64,000 nucleotides of DNA from a virus, in the IMG/VR virus record IMGVR_UViG_3300020433_000671, positions 11,491 through 75,490 of that record; one strand, given 5' to 3'. The notes below the pieces were generated by a model, which did not search any database, was not told the origin of the DNA, and saw only the letters and a program-made list of their open reading frames with translations. The translations under genes were made by a program, and so were the position numbers. Positions 1-53,939 of the stretch are shown one piece after another. Every line of letters begins with the position of its first letter. The first letter of the stretch is position 1.

Positions 1-1219
1 TTTTCATCAGAGATGCAGTTTTCTTCTGCAACTCTTTTCTAATCTGAACTATCTTATCGTTTGCTTTAGTTTTTTCAAGACCAATTTGCTGACGAGTCAT
101 CTGTTGTTTCATCTGCTGATCAGTATTCTCTTCGACGTTACGCATATGCTTCATACGCTTATCCATAAAGAACTTACCAGCTTCACCAGGCATAATTCTC
201 TCAATAGAAATATCTCCTCTGTAACGATAGTTAATAAGAAGACGAAGTTTCATACGAAGTTCGGCAGGATTACTTGCATATACAACTGTCTCACCAACCT
301 CAGGAAGTTTTACTTTATATTGAAAGAGACGACTCCTGACTTCCATTCCCTCTTGTAATTTATTACCAGGCATCACTAGTTTATCAGCGTCCTTTTTCTT
401 AAGTTTTTTTCTAAACCTCATGACTGGATCATATCCTGCAACTGGTCCTGTTGCATCTGCTTTACTACTAAATCCAGGTTTACCAGGTGTGCTACCTGTG
501 GTCATCAACTCTTCTTTTTTAAACTTTCCTGGTGTAGGTTTGTGTCCTGATCCAACGTAACCATCCTTTACATCTTTTACATGAGACTTTCTAAATTCTT
601 TCTTACTCTCACCTTTATCTTTGAGACTGTAGATAGATGACTTAGTTAACTTACCACTCTTTCTTCCACCTTTTGCTTGGTAAGCAATGTTGGGTGAATA
701 TTCTTTTAATAGATCGCTAGTACAACTACACATATGTTCTATACCCTCGTTCATTCGGTTGTCATAAAAACTTGGTAATGGATCTTTCTGTATTCTTTTA
801 GCATATTCTTTCTTTGCAACAGCATCCGTTGTTGGAATTTTACCTTCAACTAGATCTCTTACAAATCCCATTGTAGCAGCATTTGCATATAGACTACCAC
901 ATCTTGCGGTAATAGTTTCCTTTAATCCATCGTAAATAATACTACCAGTAACATGACCAAGTGTATCTAGTTTATCACTAGGAACTTTTATTTTCATAAC
1001 AGTATACACATAGTCTCTATGTGGTCCTGGAAAAGCATGTGGGATACTCTCGTCAAGAATGAATGTTTCCATCTCACCCTTTCCAAATGAACCAAGTGTA
1101 TTCCACTTCAACATGGTCTGAGTTACTTCATCTGGTTGACCATACTCTTCTATAAGTTTTTCAGCATATTTCTTTGCGTCTTTATGCTTCCAATTTTTTA
1201 GCGAATCCTTTGAGTTCAT
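1..1219 (-). CDS. Hypothetical modular Lys-rich protein, 3'-truncated by the window edge (not in ORF track)
   Basis: Hand translation from ATG at 1219 (TGATG overlap with the upstream stop) gives MNSKDSLKNWKHKDAKKYAEKLIEEYG..., open to position 1. Internal MNE/LKE/LQE/VEE junctions separate basic modules. Confidence 0.8.
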   Translation of the reverse strand, partial: MNSKDSLKNWKHKDAKKYAEKLIEEYGQPDEVTQTMLKWNTLGSFGKGEMETFILDESIPHAFPGPHRDYVYTVMKIKVPSDKLDTLGHVTGSIIYDGLKETITARCGSLYANAATMGFVRDLVEGKIPTTDAVAKKEYAKRIQKDPLPSFYDNRMNEGIEHMCSCTSDLLKEYSPNIAYQAKGGRKSGKLTKSSIYSLKDKGESKKEFRKSHVKDVKDGYVGSGHKPTPGKFKKEELMTTGSTPGKPGFSSKADATGPVAGYDPVMRFRKKLKKKDADKLVMPGNKLQEGMEVRSRLFQYKVKLPEVGETVVYASNPAELRMKLRLLINYRYRGDISIERIMPGEAGKFFMDKRMKHMRNVEENTDQQMKQQMTRQQIGLEKTKANDKIVQIRKELQKKTASLMK

Positions 1220-1581
1220 CAGAGTTTCTCCAGTTCTTCTTGCAAATCAGGATCCACCTCTAAAGATGGCATCATTCCTATAGGATATTTATTCAAGTAA
1301 AGTAGTAGAGTTTTTATCAAACTCCAATACTCTCTTTCCATCTTAAAAAAAATTAAGGGTGTTGCTGCTTCACCAAAAACATTATAAAGTATGATTAAAT
1401 GATTGATAAGAAGATGAGTTCTTAAAGAACCCCCTCGAACATAACGTTTCAATAATCTTTTAAGATACTTGAAACGTTTCATATCTTCATCAAAATCCTC
1501 CCTCGTCATAGAGGAAGGATTTTCATAATGTTTGATGGCGAAAAGAATGTAATTAGAGTCATTCAGTTCGTCAATTAACAT
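1219..1581 (-). CDS. Conserved hypothetical protein of T4-like phages
   Basis: 120-aa ORF with the recurrent marine T4-like pattern LFAIKHYENP...DMKRFKYLKRLL...HLIILYNVFG; coupled to its neighbours. Confidence 0.8.
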   Translation of the reverse strand: MLIDELNDSNYILFAIKHYENPSSMTREDFDEDMKRFKYLKRLLKRYVRGGSLRTHLLINHLIILYNVFGEAATPLIFFKMEREYWSLIKTLLLYLNKYPIGMMPSLEVDPDLQEELEKL

Positions 1582-2165
1582 TAGCTACCAAATGTGAGTG
1601 TTGCTACGTCGGATATAACTTCTGGAGCACCATTGTTGGAGTTAACTTTAACTCTGTACTGGTTACCATCGTTTGCTGCAGTCTGTCCTGAAAGAACAAG
1701 GTTTGTGCTAGTTGCACCAGATACATTAGAGAATCTACCTGTACTTGCAGTACGTTTCTGCCATTGGAAGGTTGCTGTACCACTGTTGGTTACAGATGCT
1801 ACCACTGCGAATGTTGCTGCACCACTTGAAGTTGTCTTGTCTGTATTGTTTGTAGACAAAGTAATAGTGTTTGCTGCATCTGCTGCGATAGTATCATCAC
1901 TTAGCGTCTCATCAGCATTTGCTTCTGGATTAGTGAGAAACATAAGATGCTCTGCACGATGACGAGTTGCACCAGATACATCAGTATATGTATGATACGC
2001 CCACCAACCAGGTGCTGTAATACCACGACTTTTATTTGCTGCTAACGCTGCTTCTGTTTCGTCACAAAAGACGATAGTTTTTGTAACCGACCCACCGCTA
2101 TTACCAATAGTTAGACCGACAGCAGTCTGGTTAGCAGTGGAGTCAACTCTTCCGTATAAAGACAT
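1581..2165 (-). CDS. Putative virion structural protein with C-terminal Ig-like domain (Hoc-like decoration protein)
   Basis: The C-terminal half has an Ig-like signature (ATFAVVA...TFQWQK...NDGNQYRVKV...ATLT). A TATAAATA late promoter lies at 2193-2200. Confidence 0.7.
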   Translation of the reverse strand: MSLYGRVDSTANQTAVGLTIGNSGGSVTKTIVFCDETEAALAANKSRGITAPGWWAYHTYTDVSGATRHRAEHLMFLTNPEANADETLSDDTIAADAANTITLSTNNTDKTTSSGAATFAVVASVTNSGTATFQWQKRTASTGRFSNVSGATSTNLVLSGQTAANDGNQYRVKVNSNNGAPEVISDVATLTFGS

Positions 2166-2203
2166 GTTTCTCCGACGTGTATTCTGTATGATTATTTATA
2201 AAG

Positions 2204-2395
2204 TTAACTTTCTAGCAGTGCTTTCTCAAGTGCCTCAACTAGTTTGTCATCTACTTTATTGCCTGATTTAGCAGCAGCTTTCTTGAGTAATCCGATAACA
2301 AACACCTTTAGTTTGTCCTCTAGGTCCTCAGGGATTTTATCTACCGCTTTGTTAATAATGTCAATAGCGATAGGGAGTAAAAATTTAGTGATCAT
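2204..2395 (-). CDS. Small hypothetical amphipathic helical protein
   Basis: 63-aa ORF on the coding strand that fills the gap between neighbours. Confidence 0.65.
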   Translation of the reverse strand: MITKFLLPIAIDIINKAVDKIPEDLEDKLKVFVIGLLKKAAAKSGNKVDDKLVEALEKALLES

Positions 2396-2429
2396 AATTT
2401 TGTACCAAGGTAGGTACTCTATATATGCG

Positions 2430-3539
2430 TTAACACTTCCACTTTCTAAGTGCTAATGCTTTACGAGTTGGTCTACCTTTTTCATCTTTCATCGGTCCTT
2501 TAACTCCACTCATACGAGCACAAAAAGATCTCTTTCTAGGACCACCTTCTGGTTGTGGTCGTTTTAAATCAGAACCAGGATTCTCACGTTCGTAAGACTT
2601 TCTACCTTTCTCATTCAAACCACCAGTCTTATTCTTACCTTCCTTGCGTTGCCATGCAGCAGACTTCTCTTGTATTTTTTCTAACTGATCTAATGCTTCA
2701 CTCGACCAATATACATGTGTTTCTGTTTCCTCTCTTTTATATGCAGGTACTTTAGCACCTTTCACACCACGACGTGCTTTGTGTTCTTCTCTACGTTTTT
2801 CAATAGTCTTGCCTCTCTTACCCTCAGGGTCAAACATGCCAGGATCACCATGACCAGGACCCATTCTTCTATAATTTCTGATAGATGCTTTACCGTAATC
2901 ACTACGACCTTTATCTACCTTTGCCTCTGGTAGTACTTCTTCATTTTTAGGACGGCAATCAGGAACTAACTTACCACCTTTCATCTTCATACCTACTTTC
3001 TTATGAGTTTTCCAACATTCTGCTTGAAAATCAGAAAAAGATTTACGTCCTTCAAACTCTTCTTTCTTACTACTATTACCCCAGTTTGCAGCACCAACTT
3101 TACGACACTTAACTAATGCACCTGATGCATAAGCACTTGGCCATACTGAATATCTTGACTTAACCTTATGGTAACAGGCATCTTTACTACCACTACCTTT
3201 ACCTTTTTTATCCTTGGTTTCGGAGATTTGAGTTTCTTCTTTCATTTTTTTCTTGGGTTTGTCAGTTGAAACATAAGTTGGTTTTGCAGCACCTGATTTA
3301 GATTGTTGATTAGGATCTGCTTTCTTTTTGCGACGAGCAGCAGATAATCTTTCTGACTTGCTCATGCTTGCTCTCTTTGCTGAGGACACACATTTAGGAG
3401 TTCCCTCACCTGGTTCATCACTTGCACAAGTTCCACCAGTTACTACGTTAACCCAACCACCTTTACCATCCTTGGATTTAGAACCCTTGAACCATTTGTG
3501 GAGTGAACCTTCGTCGATTAGCTGGTGAAAATTTTTCAT
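2430..3539 (-). CDS. Lys-rich modular putative internal head polyprotein
   Basis: Start at 3539 (ATGA overlap). N-terminus MKNFHQLIDE resembles the T4 capsid-targeting sequence. Basic Cys/Trp modules are separated by acidic xxE linkers. Confidence 0.7.
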   Translation of the reverse strand: MKNFHQLIDEGSLHKWFKGSKSKDGKGGWVNVVTGGTCASDEPGEGTPKCVSSAKRASMSKSERLSAARRKKKADPNQQSKSGAAKPTYVSTDKPKKKMKEETQISETKDKKGKGSGSKDACYHKVKSRYSVWPSAYASGALVKCRKVGAANWGNSSKKEEFEGRKSFSDFQAECWKTHKKVGMKMKGGKLVPDCRPKNEEVLPEAKVDKGRSDYGKASIRNYRRMGPGHGDPGMFDPEGKRGKTIEKRREEHKARRGVKGAKVPAYKREETETHVYWSSEALDQLEKIQEKSAAWQRKEGKNKTGGLNEKGRKSYERENPGSDLKRPQPEGGPRKRSFCARMSGVKGPMKDEKGRPTRKALALRKWKC

Positions 3540-3754
3540 GACCACGTTTTACCCATATCTTCTATAGTGCAGTTGGCGATAGGAGAGTCGCTGATTAATG
3601 TTTTAAATACATATTCAGTCATAACAGAATTCTGGTATAACATCTGAGAAGAGTAAGTTTTACCTTTAAAATCTTCTCTAACAGCGTCTGCTTCTGCATT
3701 ATTAGTAGCATAACCATTACCAATAAGAAATTGTCTTGCTTCTGTGGGTGTCAT
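3536..3754 (-). CDS. Hypothetical protein
   Basis: 72-aa ORF with ATGA overlaps at both ends. Confidence 0.7.
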   Translation of the reverse strand: MTPTEARQFLIGNGYATNNAEADAVREDFKGKTYSSQMLYQNSVMTEYVFKTLISDSPIANCTIEDMGKTWS

Positions 3755-4566
3755 GATCCTAATCCTCTACCTTTATCGTAGTTGTCTTTTCCACCATACC
3801 TTGCCATGGTATTAACATAATCTTGAGAAGATTTAAATCCTCTCTTCTTAGCATCAGCAGCAGTTTGTTTTTTAACATCTGCTGCTTTCTTATACTTACC
3901 AGTACCTGCAGTAGATTTTTGACCCTTTACTTTCTTTTGTTGTCTGCTGCCACCTGTCATGACTGCACCTTTACCATGTTCTTTCCTGATTTTATCAAGA
4001 ACGAATGACAATGCAGCATCCTTAGGTTTGTTCCCAGATGGTTTTTTAGTTCCACCCTTATCGTAACCCGTTTCTTTTTTAAGTCGGGTTGCTTCATGGA
4101 ATTGTCCAAAGGTCAAGATCGAATTTTCAGTGCTCTCTTTTGTGCTTTTTTCTGAAACTTCTTCTTGACTGTCATAGGTTTTAGATTCAAAGTGAGGGTT
4201 TTTCATTTGCGGACCTTTCATAAGCTCTTTACGAGCCTTCTCATTATTTTTTTGACGTTTTTTAAAGTCCGTCTCTAAGTATGTATCATCTTTTTTCTTT
4301 CCTTCTTCTACTTCTTTTTTCTTTCCATAAGTTATACAAGGATCTTGTCCACATCCACAATTTTTTGGTTTCTTTTCTTCATGTACATATCCCAATTTCT
4401 TGTACTTGTCATGGTCAGCCATACTGTTGGCTTTATACTTCTTCCCAGTCTTCTTATCAATCATGATGTGAGGTTTAAACTCTTTCTCCATCACATCTGT
4501 AACTTTAGGATTGATCTTAACTCCTGTCTTCTTTTTTTCGTTTAGTTCTTTAAAACTAAGCATCAT
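3751..4566 (-). CDS. Lys-rich modular putative internal head polyprotein
   Basis: Likely start MMLSFKELNE, after a GAGG RBS. Contains an internal CTS-like ILTFGQFHE and basic modules. Confidence 0.7.
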   Translation of the reverse strand: MMLSFKELNEKKKTGVKINPKVTDVMEKEFKPHIMIDKKTGKKYKANSMADHDKYKKLGYVHEEKKPKNCGCGQDPCITYGKKKEVEEGKKKDDTYLETDFKKRQKNNEKARKELMKGPQMKNPHFESKTYDSQEEVSEKSTKESTENSILTFGQFHEATRLKKETGYDKGGTKKPSGNKPKDAALSFVLDKIRKEHGKGAVMTGGSRQQKKVKGQKSTAGTGKYKKAADVKKQTAADAKKRGFKSSQDYVNTMARYGGKDNYDKGRGLGS

Positions 4567-5263
4567 CCTCTGCCTCGTCGTGAATAACATGCTCATGCAT
4601 GCCTCCCTCCAAGATTTCTAGTTTAGAAACTGGAACATGTTTTTCAATACCATGCTCAAAGAAAACGTCATAGTGTTGTACTACACCATTCTCATCAAGG
4701 TCATGCATTCCTTTGATACAATTACCAACACCAAACTCCTCATGTTTTACTTTTGATGCACAGTCATGCTTTTTCTTTTTCTTACTACCATATCCTTCAC
4801 CCATCTCTTCTTTCTTCTTCTTCTTTTTCTTCATATCACCATCATGTGATCCTCCACAATTTTCTCCAAGAACCTCCAAGTTCTTATCGTAGTTAACATA
4901 ATGCTCGTGTGGACCTTCTTGAATAATTTCTAATTCTTCTACAGGCACATTCTCCATAATAAAATTACCATCAGTAATATCATAATGAGTTACAGTACCA
5001 TCTTCCAATAGTGTATGTGCTTCTGGAATTACATCATACTCTCTGTCTTCCATCTTAACTTTAGACGCACAAAGGTGAGTCTTCTTACCCATCGCCTTAG
5101 CAATAGTCTTACGACGATTCAATAGATAAGAATCACTCTTATCTTTATCACCATCATTATCCATGTCACCATCTTCTTTACCGACAGGATCTAATTTTTT
5201 CTTTTCATACATTTGCACTTGTTTCAGTGCTTCCGAAAAATCGGGTAGTTCTCTAAGATTCAT
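4556..5263 (-). CDS. Hypothetical protein with a duplicated His/Cys domain and a DxDxDG loop
   Basis: Two copies of H-x-CASKVK...H-x-L-x-E-x-G-x-V-x-HYD...VPV-x-x-LEI...HEH, plus DGDMDNDGDKD. Confidence 0.75.
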   Translation of the reverse strand: MNLRELPDFSEALKQVQMYEKKKLDPVGKEDGDMDNDGDKDKSDSYLLNRRKTIAKAMGKKTHLCASKVKMEDREYDVIPEAHTLLEDGTVTHYDITDGNFIMENVPVEELEIIQEGPHEHYVNYDKNLEVLGENCGGSHDGDMKKKKKKKEEMGEGYGSKKKKKHDCASKVKHEEFGVGNCIKGMHDLDENGVVQHYDVFFEHGIEKHVPVSKLEILEGGMHEHVIHDEAEDDA

Positions 5264-5267
5264 GGTA

Positions 5268-6422
5268 CTATCTGTCCTTGTCCCTTTTATTTAGCTTACG
5301 AATGAATTCACCTGGTGTTAATCTTTTCATATAATTGGCAAGTTTATCTGTACCAATCTCACCAGCAGGTTTATAATTAAAAAACTTAAGTTTATTTATT
5401 TCCACTAAGTCTTTTAACCAAGTACGAAAAAGATGATCAGACTCATCAATAGAGATGACGTAATTGCTACCACGACTAACAACTTTAGAAATGACTCCTG
5501 TATTATCGTTCTCGACATAAGATCCCACCTTAAATAAATTTGAATTGAAATATGCTTCACGAAGACCTTGAGGATCTAACTTAGGAGCAATCTCATACAG
5601 ATCGTATGATGCTTCAGCAAAATCATCAAACTCTTCTACTTGCATTGCTTGACGTAAAGTTGTATATAACTTTTCCGTGCCATCTTTACCTAAACTTTTT
5701 GTCATTCCTCGTTTAAAGGAATCAAAATCATCTTCTGCTGCTGCCTTACGAAGTTTAGATGCAGACATACCTTCTACACCTTCACCATCTGGGTCTCTTG
5801 CTCCCGCAGAAACTACATTGATCTCATCAAATGTGTATAGATCTCCATTGTATTTCTGTGCAAGACTATTAAACTCACTAACTCTATCACCACCCACTAC
5901 CAAATTAACTGTGCTATATCCCTCAGAGTCAAGAGTGCTAAGAACATCAAAGATAGTTCTCATATCTTCATTGTTTTGAATAGCATTAGCATGATCAGGA
6001 TATGCTTGCTTCATGAATCCAATTTTAGTTCCTGCATCAAGAGGATTCTTCTTAGGATCTTCAGATCTAGATGGATATATTCTATACTCTCCTCCACTAG
6101 ATTTTGCCTGTTGAGCAACTCTATTTAAAAGTTTCTCATGTCCAACAGTAGGTGGATTAAATCTTCCAAATGTAACAGATATGCTACCTTGATCGACCTG
6201 ACCCTCGCCAGCTCCCGTTTCTTCTCCTCCATTTTGCTGTGTTTGTGCTGCTGCCTGTTGACCAGACACCTTTACTAGTTTACCGTCCTTAGAAATGTGG
6301 GTGACGTTGCCATTTACATCGGCATACTTACCATACCCTACATGCTTAAGTTTTAATTTCTCTGCTTCTTTTGCAGCGAAGGATCTTTCGGCTTCAGTTA
6401 GGAAAGCACTGAACTTTTTCAT
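5268..6422 (-). CDS. HxGH-family nucleotidyltransferase (cytidylyltransferase/NMNAT-like)
   Basis: FGRFNPPTVGH (T/HxGH motif), VVGGDR and GMSASKLR. N-terminus is MKKFSAFLTE. Confidence 0.85.
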   Translation of the reverse strand: MKKFSAFLTEAERSFAAKEAEKLKLKHVGYGKYADVNGNVTHISKDGKLVKVSGQQAAAQTQQNGGEETGAGEGQVDQGSISVTFGRFNPPTVGHEKLLNRVAQQAKSSGGEYRIYPSRSEDPKKNPLDAGTKIGFMKQAYPDHANAIQNNEDMRTIFDVLSTLDSEGYSTVNLVVGGDRVSEFNSLAQKYNGDLYTFDEINVVSAGARDPDGEGVEGMSASKLRKAAAEDDFDSFKRGMTKSLGKDGTEKLYTTLRQAMQVEEFDDFAEASYDLYEIAPKLDPQGLREAYFNSNLFKVGSYVENDNTGVISKVVSRGSNYVISIDESDHLFRTWLKDLVEINKLKFFNYKPAGEIGTDKLANYMKRLTPGEFIRKLNKRDKDR

Positions 6423-7323
6423 TCTGCCAATTCTTACTAAGGTTAAAGTTTGCTCTACTAAAAGTTAGTCTATCCACTATCTTGTAAGGATTGGTTGAAA
6501 CCGTAACGAACCCCTCATGTTGAGAAAGTTCTCCATCGATGTAACATTCAACATTTCCATTTACAACAATAGCACCGAGTAGACGCTGTTTCAGTTGGAA
6601 GATTTTATGCCATACCTTAAAGGTACTTACATTTACTTCTCCCTTATATTTAGCATCTAACGTATCATACATTTTTTGAGGATGCGGAAGTTTGCCTTGT
6701 CTTACGAATGAATTGATATGTTTTGCTATCTCAGTGCGGGATTGTGGAACCTTTGCAACCATGAGTGTAGGTAGTATCTTTGCTAGATGTCTCCATCCCA
6801 AGGGTGGTTCTACAGTAGCATTGTTAGTATCAACAAAGTAGCAACTAGAAGTGCTATCAAGACTAACTCCTATCTTACCTTCAGCAGTAGAACTGAGTTC
6901 TGTATACTCTGTATGTGGTGCTAGAATAATTTTTTCAGAAATCTTATGACCAAACTTATACTGAATAGTATTAGGACAATAAACATTCCCCCCACCGACA
7001 CCGATCCAATCAGCTTGGATAATACGATTGATGCGAGGAAGGTTATCAAGACATAACCTAAGAATGTCAGAGACAGTGCCTTGATGATTCTTATCAATGT
7101 CTTCATGACTGTAATTGATTTTGATTTTACGTTTGTTGAAGACGGACTTGGTGCCCACAAAGAACTTACCATTCTCAGGATTAGTACCAAACACTATGGC
7201 AGGAGCACCATCCCATTTGACAGACAGTCTAGTAACTGTCACAAGTTCTTTGATGGCATCTATTGCAACCTTACGTCCTTGAAGGATTGAATCTTCTGGG
7301 TGTTCAAGGTGTTTGTTGGGCAT
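6394..7323 (-). CDS. Conserved phage protein with ATP-dependent ligase-like nucleotidyltransferase motifs
   Basis: Start re-assigned to MPNKHLEH (7323), downstream of TATAAT. Motifs KWDG, HEGFV and YKIVDR. Confidence 0.7.
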   Translation of the reverse strand: MPNKHLEHPEDSILQGRKVAIDAIKELVTVTRLSVKWDGAPAIVFGTNPENGKFFVGTKSVFNKRKIKINYSHEDIDKNHQGTVSDILRLCLDNLPRINRIIQADWIGVGGGNVYCPNTIQYKFGHKISEKIILAPHTEYTELSSTAEGKIGVSLDSTSSCYFVDTNNATVEPPLGWRHLAKILPTLMVAKVPQSRTEIAKHINSFVRQGKLPHPQKMYDTLDAKYKGEVNVSTFKVWHKIFQLKQRLLGAIVVNGNVECYIDGELSQHEGFVTVSTNPYKIVDRLTFSRANFNLSKNWQNEKVQCFPN

Positions 7324-7345
7324 CTCAACCGTTTCTGATACCCAT

Positions 7346-7400
7346 ATTATACTACATCCACACGCTGTTTTGGGTTTCATTGTGCCACTTTTCTTACTGG
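7346..7400 (-). promoter_or_regulatory. Early promoter with upstream bipartite motif
   Basis: CCAGT-AAGAA-AAGTGGCAC ... TATAAT, upstream of 7323. Confidence 0.6.
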
Positions 7401-8808: not shown

Positions 8809-9018
8809 CTAATATTTATTGTCTATATTATCATCTAATGCTTGTTCTGCATGTTCCAGTATAGGAACTATATGTATGATATTATCAATGTTAGCCATCA
8901 TATCCGCAATGTGCTTTGCAATGTATGGTTTTTCAGTACGTGCTGCAAATGATAATGCGTTACGTAGGTTCTGTTGTGCTTCCTTTAATGAAGTCTCTAC
9001 TTGTTGGGATAGTGCCAT
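8809..9018 (-). CDS. Conserved cyanophage hypothetical protein
   Basis: Likely start MALSQQVETSLKEAQQNLRNALSFAAR. Confidence 0.7.
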   Translation of the reverse strand: MALSQQVETSLKEAQQNLRNALSFAARTEKPYIAKHIADMMANIDNIIHIVPILEHAEQALDDNIDNKY

Positions 9019-11043: not shown

Positions 11044-11663
11044 TACATGTAGTGAAGATAAGATCCAACAATATATTTTGTGCCTTTGGTAACTGGACGA
11101 CCAGCATGACGGTACATCCAGTTTGGAGGGAACATCAATATTCTAGCACACTTTGGATCAATTGCATGATTAATTTTTGGAAACTCTGTAGTTCCACCTT
11201 CCTCAACATCATTCAAGTATAAGAAACATACTAAAAATCTACGAGCAGAATTGTGGTCTCCAACGTCAACATGATCTGCAAATTCATCAGTAGAATTTTC
11301 ACGATATTTTTTAATCCTATACTCTTCAAATGAATATTTGGCAGGAAAGTCTGGACCTAGATCAACTTCATCTACATACCTACCAACAGATTCAATAAAA
11401 TGATATTGAATTTGTTTTTGTATACCCATCCATGCAACATCTCTTGCTGCATACCGTTTAGATATATTCATCTCGGTAAACGTAGGTCTTTGTGATCTAT
11501 CGATGTATTCTTGATGCTCTTCTTGTGAATTAAATAATTCTATTATTTCTTCACAGAGTTCTTTATCGCAAATATCATCATAAGTTTTAATATAATCTGT
11601 AAGTCTTGTAAGAGAGGGTTTAACTAAATCTGATAATGAGACATTTAAAGGACTAACTTCCAT
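11043..11663 (-). CDS. 2OG-Fe(II) oxygenase (prolyl-4-hydroxylase-like)
   Basis: HVD...[15 protein letters not shown]...HAGRPV...KY (HxD...H facial triad). Confidence 0.9.
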
Positions 11664-39335: not shown

Positions 39336-40724
39336 TTACATGATGTTTGCAACTTGTGTACGTCTGTAGTACTTGTTAGCATTTGCTGTAAGAGCACCAG
39401 ATCCCTGAGTAAGACCGCCTGAGAATGGGTTAGAAACCATACCGTAACGAGTCTTGAATCCAATCTTGGGTTGGAATGTATCTGGGTTAATCGCTCTGAC
39501 TTGCTGCAATGGCACGTAAGGGCAATAGAACAATCCAGCGTCATAAGGAGAAGTTCCTTTGTATCCTGCAACATAGAAGTGCTTATCAGCAACGTTAGCA
39601 GAATATGGGTCAACGTAAACTCTGATCTTACCGTTAAGAGTACCAACGAGAGTAGAGGAAGTATCGTCTACATTTGTTAATGCGTTGTTACCTTGTAGAG
39701 CAGGTGTGTAATCTAGAACACCAGCCATACCTAGAGCAGAAGCAACGTCTGCAGAGCAGATCAAGATGTTGCCCTTCCCACGACGAGTTTGCTGACCGAT
39801 AGCGTTTGCGTCTCTTTCAATTTGGAATAGAAGTCCTTTGAATTTCTCAACTGACCATCTACCATTTGAGTCAACATCAAGGTCGAAGATACCAGCGTTA
39901 GCAGTATTGTTTTGAGCACCAGCAACAGCGTTTGTGTAGATAGTTCTAACAACTTCTCTGTTGATTTCAGCAAGAATCTCTGTTGAGAGAATGTTGCTTA
40001 GCTCTGTCTCGGCATCAAGACCATGAATTGCTTTCAAGTCCTGAGCAAGCTCAATACTGTACTCTGCTTTTAGAGCACGTGCTCTGGCAGTAACAGTTAC
40101 CTTCTCAATACTGAATCCCATCTCACGGAATTCATTGTTTGATACTGAATCATCTAGTGCTTCAACCGTAGCGGTTGTCATACCTTCAGCATCACCAGTC
40201 TTCTCGTAAGTACCAGCAGGTGAATCGTTAAGAAGTCCTGGGTTAGCACCTTCAGCGTCGTTAACACCAGAAGAAGAAGCAGTAGGATCGTAGTTTGACA
40301 ATCCTTCTCCCTTTCCACCAGAGAAACCAGCGTTAGGCTCATTAAAGAATGCCTCACGGAAGTCGCTGTTAGCAGGTCTACGCTCGGAACCGTAGGCAGT
40401 TCTCATTGCGAAGATAAGTCCAGTAGGACCAGTCATTGGCTGAACGCCAGCGATATCATATGCAATAAGTTGTGGCATTGAACGTCTGATTAGACTGATC
40501 AATACTGGATCATAACCTGCAACACCGCCAGTAGCTGCGTTTGCTTGGGTATAACCTGTTGTTTGCAGAGTTTCGTTAAGGACTTGTCCTTCTTCGATCT
40601 GTGCTTTTTCTTGGTTCTCAAGAAGTTGTGCGACTACGCCACGCTTATGTGAATCGGTGATCTCTGGAAGAGCTTCGTGATTCAGAACGGGTGCCCACTT
40701 TTCTTGGAGGTTTTTAATAGACAT
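39336..40724 (-). CDS. g23: Major capsid protein gp23
   Basis: EKWAPVL, DPVLISLIRR, GVQPMTGPTGLIFAMR, ELAQDLKAIHGLDAE and GFKTRYG. Confidence 0.98.
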   Translation of the reverse strand: MSIKNLQEKWAPVLNHEALPEITDSHKRGVVAQLLENQEKAQIEEGQVLNETLQTTGYTQANAATGGVAGYDPVLISLIRRSMPQLIAYDIAGVQPMTGPTGLIFAMRTAYGSERRPANSDFREAFFNEPNAGFSGGKGEGLSNYDPTASSSGVNDAEGANPGLLNDSPAGTYEKTGDAEGMTTATVEALDDSVSNNEFREMGFSIEKVTVTARARALKAEYSIELAQDLKAIHGLDAETELSNILSTEILAEINREVVRTIYTNAVAGAQNNTANAGIFDLDVDSNGRWSVEKFKGLLFQIERDANAIGQQTRRGKGNILICSADVASALGMAGVLDYTPALQGNNALTNVDDTSSTLVGTLNGKIRVYVDPYSANVADKHFYVAGYKGTSPYDAGLFYCPYVPLQQVRAINPDTFQPKIGFKTRYGMVSNPFSGGLTQGSGALTANANKYYRRTQVANIM

Positions 40725-41830: not shown

Positions 41831-42475
41831 TCACAAACTCTTTAAAAATGCTGCAAATGCGGAGATTTTACGCTCTTGCAGATTAATTAGAGTTGCTTCA
41901 TCAATTTCTTGTTTGATTTGAGCAACAGCAGACTCTTTAAGTATGCCATTCTCCCAAACCCATTCTTTTCCTTCCATGATTCCATTTACAAATGCATCTG
42001 GAGCTGAAGGATCTGCTACAATATCAGCAGCAGTGGCAAGCATGAAATCATCACATACAACATTGCAGTTAGATTCCTTCTTGATTGATCCCATACCTCT
42101 GGAAGAAACTCCAAGTCTTACACCCTCATCGAGTAAAGATTTTGCAATTTTTCCGTTTGGTGTATCAAGTATCTTTGCTCTACCGATGAAGTTATTTCCA
42201 TCTTCTTTCAAAGATTGTATCTTATGTGAAACCCTATCTAAATTAATAGAAGGTCCGTCAGGGTGACCTAACTCACCAAGAGCACGACCAGATTTGATAT
42301 AAGACTCATCATATTTAGCAACTTCACGTGCTAATGTTCTTTGAGGATACATTCTTCCATTACGGTTTTTAATTTCCGCTTGCAAGAACACACCTTCAAT
42401 ATAGTAATTTTTCTTACCTTCTTTCTCTTCCGTTAGAAATTGAACGTCTGTAAGTTCTTCAGCTATCAGTCTCAT
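41831..42475 (-). CDS. g21: Prohead protease gp21
   Basis: NRNGRMY, ALGELGHP, GVSSRGMGS and DIVADPSAP. Confidence 0.96.
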   Translation of the reverse strand: MRLIAEELTDVQFLTEEKEGKKNYYIEGVFLQAEIKNRNGRMYPQRTLAREVAKYDESYIKSGRALGELGHPDGPSINLDRVSHKIQSLKEDGNNFIGRAKILDTPNGKIAKSLLDEGVRLGVSSRGMGSIKKESNCNVVCDDFMLATAADIVADPSAPDAFVNGIMEGKEWVWENGILKESAVAQIKQEIDEATLINLQERKISAFAAFLKSL

Positions 42476-51603: not shown

Positions 51604-52509
51604 TTAAGATTTCTTCATTTTTGCTTTCGCCTTTGCTTCATCCTGTTTTTTTAAGTAACTTTTAAGTTGCTTTAATTTAATATCACGAATCAGTTTAGAA
51701 CGTTTGCTAAGATATGGAGGGTTAGTTTTTTGGATAGCTTTGATTGCCATATCACCAATACCCTCTTCTATTTCATTCTCTTCATTTGCCTTAACACAGT
51801 TTGGATATCTCTTTCCAAACATAGTTTTCATACCTTTCTTCTTATATCCTTTCCAACATTTTTCATCAAGGGTTTCTTCGTTACCTTCTTTTACACTTTT
51901 AGGTTTCTTATCAGGAACAAATTTGACTGGTTTTGATACTGTGCCACCTGTTTTTTTGTCAAGCACTGCAACTCTAGGTGGTGTAGATTCCATGTTCTTG
52001 AAATCTTTATGAGTTCCCTTTAACTTTTTATATGACATCCTTGCATAAGATGTATTCTTAGGCATTGATATTTCATTTACATCTTCAACTTCTTCTTTCT
52101 TTGTTTTTTTCTTAACATTCTTTTTGTAGTATTCAGTCTTCTTTGGATCAGCACCTAAGAAATAATCCATAGAGGAACCTGATTTATCATACTTAATTTT
52201 TTCTTCTACTGAACTAGGTGTACCATCTCCATGCTCAATAGGATTACCTTTAGCATCTTTCTGATGATGTTCTTTCCTCAAACCTAAACGACCCAAGAGA
52301 GATTTTTTCTTAGGTGATTTATATCCGTGACGTTTGGCATAATCCATATAGGATTCTCCCTTTCTCAACTTTTTAGGATCAGATTTTGGTTTGGATGCAG
52401 CAGCACGATCTTCACGAGCACGTTGATTTGCACCAGGACCACCTAACTTTCGATCCTTATCAGGATCGGGATGCCAGTAGTCTCCTCTTTCGTTAATCAT
52501 TTTATCCAT
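51604..52509 (-). CDS. Lys-rich modular putative internal head polyprotein
   Basis: INE/VEE/VNE/LDE/IEE junctions; shares the CWK...C module with 2430-3539. Confidence 0.7.
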   Translation of the reverse strand: MDKMINERGDYWHPDPDKDRKLGGPGANQRAREDRAAASKPKSDPKKLRKGESYMDYAKRHGYKSPKKKSLLGRLGLRKEHHQKDAKGNPIEHGDGTPSSVEEKIKYDKSGSSMDYFLGADPKKTEYYKKNVKKKTKKEEVEDVNEISMPKNTSYARMSYKKLKGTHKDFKNMESTPPRVAVLDKKTGGTVSKPVKFVPDKKPKSVKEGNEETLDEKCWKGYKKKGMKTMFGKRYPNCVKANEENEIEEGIGDMAIKAIQKTNPPYLSKRSKLIRDIKLKQLKSYLKKQDEAKAKAKMKKS

Positions 52510-53401
52510 AATGGTATGCTGCTTTGTTAGTTTTACCTAATTTACCCTTTCTAACTTTCGTTCCAGAAGTTTCTCCCATTCCAGAAGGGTTTTTTCCTGG
52601 TTTTGCCTTGCCTACATTGGCAGACTTATTTGGTTTTTTATTTTCAGTATCATGCAATCTAGCAGGTTTACCTGCTTTTTTAGTGATAACTGACTCCTGA
52701 CCATGTTTACGACCTAATCGTCGCATGACTTTACCGAAACGTCTCTTGCTCATACCTTTACCTGGTGAGGTTTGGTATGAGACTTCACGTCCAGTTCCTT
52801 CACCTGATGAATATTTATATTCTCCCACTCCTTTCTTGTAACCAATACCTTTTTTCTTGAGATCTTTCTCAAGATTTTTTCTGCTTTCTCTATTTTTCTT
52901 CTCGTCAGTTCCCCGATCTGCAGAAATATTTCCAGTGGTTTTAGATTTTGCTTTAGAAAGCATCCTTGCAGTAGGATTACCCTCAACAAGTTTGATAAAA
53001 TCCTTGTAATACATTCCTTCTTTTTTCATAGGTAAACCCTTGTGCTTTGTTTTAGCAAAATCTTTTACGTCTGAACGCTTGGCGGTGGCAGCAACTTTGG
53101 CAACCTCAGGCGAGGGATTTTCCATTTCCCCTTTCTGAGCCGCTCGAACCATTCCGAAAAATCTTTGTTGTTTTTTGGATACTGCTTTTTCATTGATGCC
53201 TCCAAACACATCATTGTATGTAGGTGGCATTTTTTGCATTTCACCCATTGCCATTTTATTTGCAGTTTTATGCATGACTTCTTTATCACGCTTGCCGTAT
53301 AGTTTAGACCAACGTTGTTTACCCTTCATCATACCTCTAATATATTTTCTAGCGGTTTGATTAATTGCGGGTGGAATGTCAGACTTAAAACCTTCAGCCA
53401 T
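52502..53401 (-). CDS. Lys-rich modular putative internal head polyprotein
   Basis: Three modules separated by GGINE and YYKDFIKLVE. Confidence 0.7.
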   Translation of the reverse strand: MAEGFKSDIPPAINQTARKYIRGMMKGKQRWSKLYGKRDKEVMHKTANKMAMGEMQKMPPTYNDVFGGINEKAVSKKQQRFFGMVRAAQKGEMENPSPEVAKVAATAKRSDVKDFAKTKHKGLPMKKEGMYYKDFIKLVEGNPTARMLSKAKSKTTGNISADRGTDEKKNRESRKNLEKDLKKKGIGYKKGVGEYKYSSGEGTGREVSYQTSPGKGMSKRRFGKVMRRLGRKHGQESVITKKAGKPARLHDTENKKPNKSANVGKAKPGKNPSGMGETSGTKVRKGKLGKTNKAAYHYG

Positions 53402-53402
53402 G

Positions 53403-53939
53403 TTAACCGCCGACTACTTGTACTTCTTCAACAATAACTGCACTAGTAGCAGCTGTTATCTTAACAGCACGTAAAATTCTTGCTTTAGAACCAGATGACC
53501 AAGTGTAATCAGCACTAGCACCAGAAGAATCTACGTCAGTAGTTAGTATATTATTTGTTGAAATTGCAGTTATTTTTTTACCAGCAGTTCCAGCAGAGAG
53601 ATAGTTACTATCAATTGTTGGAGATGTGCCATCATCAATAATAGCAATAAAATCTCCCACAGAAAATGGGTGATTTGCAGATGTATCTTGAATATGTTCA
53701 CCAACAAAATAATCAGCAGTTGCATCATCAACCGCTTTAACTATTTTTGCTTGTCCAGGTTTACTACCCTTGATAAGGATAAATTCATTCTGCACTAAAG
53801 TTATTGCAGGACCATCATTGAAGGAAACAGTGGCAGCACCTGCTGTAGAACCAACTCTATAATATCCTGTCTGTACCGTTTGAAATTCAGAAGCACCTGC
53901 TGCTACCGAATTAGTACTTAATACGTTAAGAACTGTCAT
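53403..53939 (-). CDS. Conserved hypothetical protein downstream of g16 (probable virion protein)
   Basis: 178-aa beta-rich ORF ending in EEVQVVGG. Confidence 0.65.
   Translation of the reverse strand: MTVLNVLSTNSVAAGASEFQTVQTGYYRVGSTAGAATVSFNDGPAITLVQNEFILIKGSKPGQAKIVKAVDDATADYFVGEHIQDTSANHPFSVGDFIAIIDDGTSPTIDSNYLSAGTAGKKITAISTNNILTTDVDSSGASADYTWSSGSKARILRAVKITAATSAVIVEEVQVVGG

Follow-up and report, generated by a model that had tools for sequence, protein, structure and literature searches.

Capsid-targeting-like tags and conserved hydrophobic-x-Glu junctions in modular proteins of a T4-like cyanomyovirus, candidate cargo of the prohead core

Four neighbouring genes, here called A, B, C and E, probably encode cargo of the prohead core in the phage whose DNA we analysed. 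The stretch under study (hereafter the window) comprises 64,000 nucleotides of the IMG/VR virus record IMGVR_UViG_3300020433_000671, from position 11,491 to 75,490, and is part of a 75.5-kb viral contig of about 37% G+C in which the minus strand carries nearly all genes. It is a T4-like cyanomyovirus contig: the window holds a T4-type gene set (gp23, gp22, gp21, gp20, sheath protein, terminase and replication genes), and the closest relative of the contig is the Prochlorococcus phage P-SSM7, with 85% identity over parts of the region. The features discussed below are collected in Table 1.

In the mechanism that we propose, an N-terminal leader of about 10 residues would bind the assembling scaffold core, like the capsid targeting sequence of T4, and the protein bearing it would thereby be built into the prohead. 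A gp21-type serine protease (Peptidase_S77) would cut after the Glu of a hydrophobic-x-Glu motif, removing the leader, and would probably also cut between modules, at hydrophobic-x-Glu or at a full copy of the tag. The released pieces, small Lys-rich modules with Cys pairs such as DUF6321 and folded enzymes (an HxGH nucleotidyltransferase and a domain with the fold of S-adenosylmethionine (SAM) lyases), would remain associated with the packaged genome and pass into the host along with it. We assign to this whole mechanism, from tag loading through cutting to ejection and with T4 as the guide, a probability of about 0.68. Packaging of these proteins is well supported through relatives; we infer the proteolytic release of modules and, by analogy, the binding to the core, the location inside the capsid, the ejection into the host and the role of the pieces there.

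The capsid targeting sequence of T4 is MKTYQEFIAE (PMC8442874), in which targeting depends on residues 4 and 7 and processing on residues 8 and 10 (PMC9026906). The leaders of A (MKKFSAFLTE, 6393-6422, minus strand, start at 6422), E (MKNFHQLIDE, 3510-3539, minus strand, ATG at 3539) and C (MLSFKELNE, 4537-4563, minus strand) agree with it at these four key positions, with an offset for C, whose leader is one residue shorter. A and E show the complete pattern: about ten residues, of which the fourth is aromatic, the seventh F or L, the eighth I or L and the tenth Glu. The E orthologue of P-SSM7, which starts MKTYSQFIEE, agrees with the T4 tag at all four key positions. Across 80 related IMG/VR loci the A and C leaders persist, with free variation at position 9 (8 in C); apart from this position the A leader is invariant. 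Gene B has a leader of 17-20 residues (5204-5263) ending in hydrophobic-x-E followed by KK. Its form M-N-L-x-x-L-P-D-M-S...h-x-E/KK, where h stands for a hydrophobic residue and the slash, here and below, for the cut, predicted or known, is kept in 62 loci in proteins of 98-708 aa in total length.

These leaders had drawn the attention of an earlier reading made from the sequence alone (hereafter the sequence-only reading), and they turn out to be tag-like and conserved in A, C and E as it had noticed. The start that it gave to C, MMLSFKELNE, has to be corrected to MLSFKELNE, the extra upstream M not being conserved. It had also described the leader-bearing genes as consecutive: the three do lie within 4 kb, but gene B and a 208-nt insertion intervene. 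On the whole 75.5-kb contig the leader pattern fits 7 out of 1578 candidate starts, three of which are those of A, C and E. The DUF6267 gene upstream overlaps the start of A by 29 nt. Dual coding was considered as the cause of the conserved A leader and rejected, since the leader is also kept in the many relatives whose upstream gene stops short of the ATG of A.

The machinery that would act on such tags is encoded in the window. Besides the gp21-type prohead protease, which itself starts MRLIAE/ELTDVQFLTE/E, we identified the gp22 scaffold (phrog_237, 1e-131) and the major head protein gp23. In the latter, VLNE51/T aligns column for column with FLTE65/A66 of T4 gp23 (mature chain of 456 residues, precursor of 521), so the (L/I)-x-E motif expected of gp21 substrates is found at the homologous site; this alignment supports QVLNE, which the sequence-only reading had picked as the likely maturation site on the ground of the same signature. 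The leader junction of A, FSAFLTE/AE, differs from the T4 gp23 site, FGSFLTE/AE, at 2 of 9 positions. Peptidase_S77 was found on 3 of 5 long contigs carrying E-family genes; a count on short fragments, which decides little because these are 5-36% complete, gave 2 of 5 for those with a tagged stand-alone DUF6321, 0 of 5 for those with a leaderless one and 0 of 5 for those bearing a tagged SAM lyase.

Relatives of these proteins have been detected in phage particles. Mass spectrometry of purified S-SM1 virions recovered 25 peptides of GC190, 10 of GC1454 and 7 of GC1455, as well as 13 of GC119, 17 of GC425 and 17 of GC426 (Sullivan et al. 2010, PMC3037559, Table S8). The S-SM1 orthologues are SSM1_190 for A, SSM1_191 for B, SSM1_192 for C and SSM1_197 for the first open reading frame (ORF) of the window, which gives 25 virion peptides for A, 10 for B, 7 for C and 13 for GC119 of the E family. 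Of all annotated gene starts in the S-SM1 genome, the leader pattern fits those of SSM1_190 and SSM1_192 alone. The sequence-only reading had staked its claim on the presence of such proteins in virions, and the S-SM1 data bear this out, at the level of orthologues, for A, B, C and the E family.

A second virion proteome, from the distant cluster C phage S-CREM2, contains a SAM hydrolase, a kinase, a cytidylyltransferase and several hypothetical proteins (PMC10665884). The N-termini of these proteins are MKDFDSFLEE, MKRFDAFLTE, MKNFSSFLTE, MKDLHSFLTE and MQTFSMFFSE. The third belongs to gp154, which keeps 8 of the 10 leader residues of A and whose catalytic part is 34% identical to that of A. 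The pattern fits 10 of 1279 candidate starts in this genome, half of them (5 of 10) starts of proteins detected in virions, and no tail, baseplate or fibre protein carries the leader. Within a region of 15 neighbouring genes the tag is present on 4 of the 6 whose products were detected and on none of the 9 others (one-sided Fisher test, about 0.01, calculated by hand). The authors of that study pointed to the repeated finding of cytidyltransferases and kinases in cyanophage virions, considered that these enzymes may reach the cell with the particle, and offered no mechanism (PMC10665884). Another S-CREM2 virion protein, annotated as a Cas9-like nuclease (locus L300, 4705-7314), has a tag, FASFMAE/, at residues 19-25 and not at its N-terminus; either its start was mis-called or its leader is longer.

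Tag-like segments also recur inside the proteins. The two reported by the sequence-only reading were both located, KSFSDFQAE at residues 166-174 of E (3018-3044) and ILTFGQFHE at residues 149-157 of C (4093-4119), and a third copy, EFDDFAE, lies in A (5613-5633) before its C-terminal module. In 86 family proteins we counted 18 copies of the tag core [KRSTMNG]-[ST]-[FY]-x-x-F-x(1,2)-E, where shuffling leaves 0.3 +/- 0.5, and each of the 18 directly precedes the start of a module. To quantify the junctions, four module types were defined by their conserved cores and their upstream contexts were counted as unique. A hydrophobic-x-Glu stands just upstream of the module in 65%, 97%, 62% and 87% of the unique contexts, compared with 8-25% in random windows of the same proteins (p from 3e-13 to 7e-26). 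When 87 family proteins were each compared with all the others, the starting points of local similarity peaked at the junctions: 129 lie at the Glu, and about 25-35 at a distance of ten residues. In gene C, the sites after residues 9, 26, 138 and 157 are kept in 100%, 100%, 97% and 70% of 41 homologues. Raw hydrophobic-x-Glu counts per protein are mildly enriched (p = 0.005 for E, p = 0.003 for B, not significant for A); the weight therefore rests on conservation and position.

The sequence-only reading had described basic modules delimited by short acidic linkers ending in x-x-E and had tied its fate to the borders seen in homologues. Module borders in homologues do coincide with x-x-E sites; among the linkers themselves, the one ending VEE in C is conserved in 33% only. 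From the positions of the conserved junctions, A, B, C and E together would yield about 16 pieces; the sequence-only reading had put the number of peptides at roughly two dozen. In E the predicted junctions follow residues 10, 107, 174, 205 and 291. The AlphaFold model of E shows folded blocks at residues 10-78, 119-156, 168-200 and 280-369 separated by disordered linkers; two of the junctions fall within linkers, the rest at the margins of blocks.

The same modules are found as separate genes whose boundaries match the junctions. Leaderless stand-alone DUF6321 genes start MAKSAAW..., exactly at the residue after the predicted cut, and other stand-alone DUF6321 genes have only the tag in front, for example MKTFQDFQE/SAW... 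or MTFDEFVTE/ASAAW.... A gene of another phage starts MKNFQEFQE/ATRLKKE and corresponds to the module that follows the internal tag of C. Conversely, the S-SM1 GC119 protein, a single chain of 495 aa, joins modules that in the window are split over E and the genes at 51604-52509 and 52502-53401, and the module that follows the 7-residue leader MDKMINE/ in the window follows KKDLNE/ internally in that protein.

The last of these genes, 52502-53401, illustrates the combination of tag and enzyme. Its C-terminal domain reaches PF23780 marginally, with 28.8 bits where the cut-off is 28. The same family is matched by 48 of 49 homologues, the best with 3e-22, and Glu79 and Gln108 are invariant in the alignment. 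In its AlphaFold model the domain has a predicted local distance difference test score (pLDDT) of 87.5 and the preceding tag, MYYKDFIKLVE/, is disordered. Compared with the T3 SAM lyase the model gives, over 129-134 residues, Z 14.0 and a root-mean-square deviation of 2.7 A; a Z of 8 is reached by the next unrelated chain. By its predicted structure the domain thus has a T3-type SAM-lyase fold. The SAM lyases of T3 and Svi3-3, which are anti-restriction enzymes, share the fold with it; the T3 enzyme is made after infection from an early gene, whereas the window domain stands behind basic modules and a tag. Most stand-alone homologues start with a tag, one of them being MKTYQEFMLE, and relatives of the gene sit in T4-like myovirus fragments beside homologues of window genes. 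The position of the tag on the stand-alone relatives suggests delivery of a ready-made enzyme.

Several points weigh against the proposed mechanism. The junction contexts that were counted are phylogenetically non-independent. Three residues ahead of the cut the junctions have V, I, M or L, a broader range than the L/I preference of T4; two of the predicted E junctions lie at helix ends, outside the disordered linkers of the model; and the gp23 site of the window has no aromatic residue upstream. The conserved Glu could instead belong to the module folds, although leaderless stand-alone modules without the junction Glu argue against this. A protein detected in virions need not lie inside the capsid, and the published cyanophage virion proteomes consist of peptide counts only, with cleavage products seen in none. 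The sequence-only claim of packaged cassettes cut into cationic peptides accordingly stands for its packaging side (protease, scaffold, gp23 site and virion orthologues), with cleavage as a prediction from the junctions. Its further idea of injected effectors gains support for the enzyme cargo (the HxGH nucleotidyltransferase, and the SAM-lyase-fold domain, which lies beyond the positions that reading covered) and none for the basic modules.

The question then becomes whether the proteins are cut at several sites or at the tag only. In the main rival explanation the N-terminal tag takes them into the head and is the only place where they are trimmed, as in IPI-III of T4; internal tags and junctions would be relics of cassette fusion, cut little or not at all, and the proteins would act as intact multi-domain chains. 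The T4 internal proteins are indeed cut once, at the tag, and not into pieces (PMC8442874), the occurrence of modules both fused and as separate leader-bearing genes speaks for frequent fusion and fission, and the junctions at helix ends fit as well. A relic of fusion should decay, however, and hydrophobic-x-E persists at 62-97% of the junctions against a variable background, both in the residue preceding the Glu and in the sequence farther upstream; the 70-100% conservation of the four C sites points the same way. Cutting at several sites would be a departure from T4, closer to the gp21 relatives of phiKZ-like phages. In phiKZ, 201phi2-1 and SPN3US, many head, inner-body and ejection proteins are cut after Glu at a short motif by gp21-related proteases, some of them at several sites (PMC5694885). 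The motifs there are (S/A/G)-x-E or A-x-E, mostly behind long propeptides, a T4-type decapeptide tag is not reported, and the proteins are unrelated in sequence to those of the window. On this evidence we regard trimming at the tag alone as rather unlikely.

A different objection concerns packaging itself. Abundant late DNA-binding or metabolic proteins could co-purify with particles, the N-terminal motif having another purpose and resembling the T4 tag by coincidence. Very basic proteins (25% K+R) could stick to DNA or capsids, carry-over of abundant proteins was mentioned as a possibility by the S-CREM2 authors (PMC10665884), and one S-CREM2 match to the pattern falls at the expected position of the small terminase gene, whose protein was not detected in virions. 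Yet the match to T4 falls on exactly the four positions that are important there, the same tag is carried by unrelated cargo (nucleotidyltransferase, kinase, SAM lyase and small basic modules), tagged proteins appear in two independent virion preparations, and non-coding frames hardly contain the pattern (0-0.17%, compared with 0.7-3% for the coding strand). Co-purification is thus improbable. Still less credence can be given to an accident of composition in Lys/Glu-rich sequences: raw hydrophobic-x-Glu counts in A and in some neighbouring proteins do equal those of shuffles, but the position-specific enrichment, the conservation and the starts of stand-alone modules go beyond composition, and shuffles and background windows contradict it.

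Table 1. Features of the window, with positions counted from its first nucleotide (K+R, lysine plus arginine)
Feature	Position	Strand	Remarks
First ORF, 419 aa	1-1219	minus	GC426-type with N-terminal extension; runs off the window (to contig position 11453)
DUF7207	1219-1581		Between the Ig-like head protein and the first ORF in gene order
Ig-like head protein	1581-2165		After the 63-aa gene in minus-strand order
Gene for a 63-aa protein			Between E and the Ig-like head protein gene in minus-strand order
Gene E (T4-GC119 family)	2430-3539	minus	4-5 basic modules with Cys pairs, then DUF6321 at the end
Insertion, 208 nt	3536-3754		Between C and E
Gene C	3751-4563	minus	Basic protein, 25% K+R
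Gene B	4556-5263	minus	Variable modular protein
Two His/Cys-rich repeats in B	4901-5077, 4589-4768	minus	
Gene A, 'cytidyltransferase' (T4-GC190)	5268-6422	minus	Predicted HxGH-type nucleotidyltransferase
Ligase-like DUF6267 gene	6394-7380	minus	First in minus-strand order, before A
Predicted gp23 maturation site QVLNE/T	40572-40586	minus	gp23 residues 47-51
gp21-type prohead protease	41831-42475	minus	Peptidase_S77, 119 bits; phrog_207, 2e-89
Further family member	51604-52509	minus	26% K+R; 7-residue leader MDKMINE/; CW...C module of E at 51796-51858
Further family member	52502-53401	minus	Basic N-terminal modules, internal tag MYYKDFIKLVE/, predicted SAM-lyase-fold domain at 52505-53020

The individual proteins were characterised as follows. 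Gene A matches Pfam CTP_transf_like (PF01467; 24.3 bits, cut-off 21) and phrog_395 (4e-121), and its TVGH at residues 92-95 corresponds to the (T/H)xGH motif of HxGH nucleotidyltransferases; its product is therefore a predicted HxGH nucleotidyltransferase. NCBIfam models score under their cut-offs and so assign it no particular substrate. The two repeats of B, of about 60 aa each, show an H-x-C...H-E-H spacing, and B also has a poly-Lys run and an Asp-rich loop weakly resembling a dockerin/EF-hand calcium loop (Pfam E = 0.046). The repeat region may be a metal-binding module. In E, DUF6321 (PF19846) scores 84.4 bits for a cut-off of 28.5 over residues 303-369, and 11 PHROG families match different segments of the protein. 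The 51604-52509 protein shares phrog_727, 11470, 22379 and 38880 with B and E.

Sequence searches of the PDB with E, A and the SAM-lyase-like domain found nothing, and Foldseek with the whole E model gave no significant match in the PDB. A C-x19-C module starting with CW is present in two proteins 49 kb apart (2955-3017 and 51796-51858); it forms a beta-hairpin in the AlphaFold model, and its only PDB look-alikes are non-significant alpha-defensin rows. We did not count the alpha-defensin likeness of E, as the best Foldseek rows have E > 1 and cover a hairpin of 25 residues only.

The first ORF fuses a 240-aa N-terminal domain, with no assigned identity, to a GC426-type virion protein (phrog_696, 2e-77, residues 244-406). 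The start of its GC426 part (window positions 419-454) resembles the mature N-terminus of gp23 (blastp E = 1e-4), KKEE/LMTTG...AGYDPVM aligning with VLNE/TLQTTG...AGYDPVL, as if it mimicked, through the AGYDPV motif, the N-arm of gp23. In S-CREM2, gp160 joins the same gp23-like arm to E-family modules.

The region from A to the first ORF is flanked by a helicase/polymerase block and by the primase and nrdA genes, an order kept in cyanomyoviruses. The DUF6267 protein has a KWDG motif resembling motif I of ligases. As phrog_455 (764 positions) spans this protein and A, fused forms exist in which the tag of A would be internal. The insertion between C and E holds a 72-aa ORF without homologue in any fetched locus; in the closest related locus (L106) it is absent and C and E overlap. 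The late-promoter motif NATAAATA does not stand immediately before any of the genes A, B, C and E; its nearest occurrences are at 8820 and 2200. The interval 53403-53939, flanked by the small terminase gene on one side and the two basic modular genes on the other, encodes a conserved acidic-to-neutral protein of 178 aa (phrog_682).

Set beside T4, the window has homologous gp21, gp22 and gp23, and its tagged proteins share with IPI, IPII, IPIII and Alt a ten-residue N-terminal tag with the same key positions and an (I/L)-x-E end. Both phages put the tag on basic, fast-changing proteins and on an enzyme, and in both the cargo is found in virions (for the window, through relatives), whereas the mature parts have no sequence similarity. 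In the window alone, unlike in T4, the tag or its hydrophobic-x-Glu end recurs inside long proteins between shuffled modules. The cargo also differs from that of T4 in comprising widely conserved modules (DUF6321 and DUF5872-like), an HxGH nucleotidyltransferase and a SAM-lyase fold, which would here be cleaved and ejected. Our literature search, with subscription journals outside its scope, found no mention of a cyanophage capsid targeting sequence and none of DUF6321.

Cyanomyoviruses are among the commonest marine viruses, and their virion proteomes repeatedly hold "non-structural" enzymes and hypothetical proteins without explanation. The tag probably explains these recurring proteins by accounting for their entry into the particle. 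It would also provide a simple sequence rule by which proteins that are packaged, and probably injected, could be predicted in the genomes of thousands of uncultured T4-like phages. More tentatively, and at somewhat less than even odds, marine T4-like phages may use a portable tag-and-cut code, in which any module placed behind K-(T/S)-(F/Y)-x-x-F-x-x-E, at the N-terminus as well as within a polyprotein, is loaded into the head and set free by the head protease; the result would be, for each particle, an injected and shuffled cocktail of small cationic Cys-pair peptides and ready-made enzymes (nucleotidyltransferase, SAM lyase and, in relatives, kinase) acting before phage expression, chiefly against host defences. 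The tag points to a role for widespread domains without assigned function such as DUF6321, and the tagged SAM lyase suggests that anti-defence enzymes are delivered ready-made.

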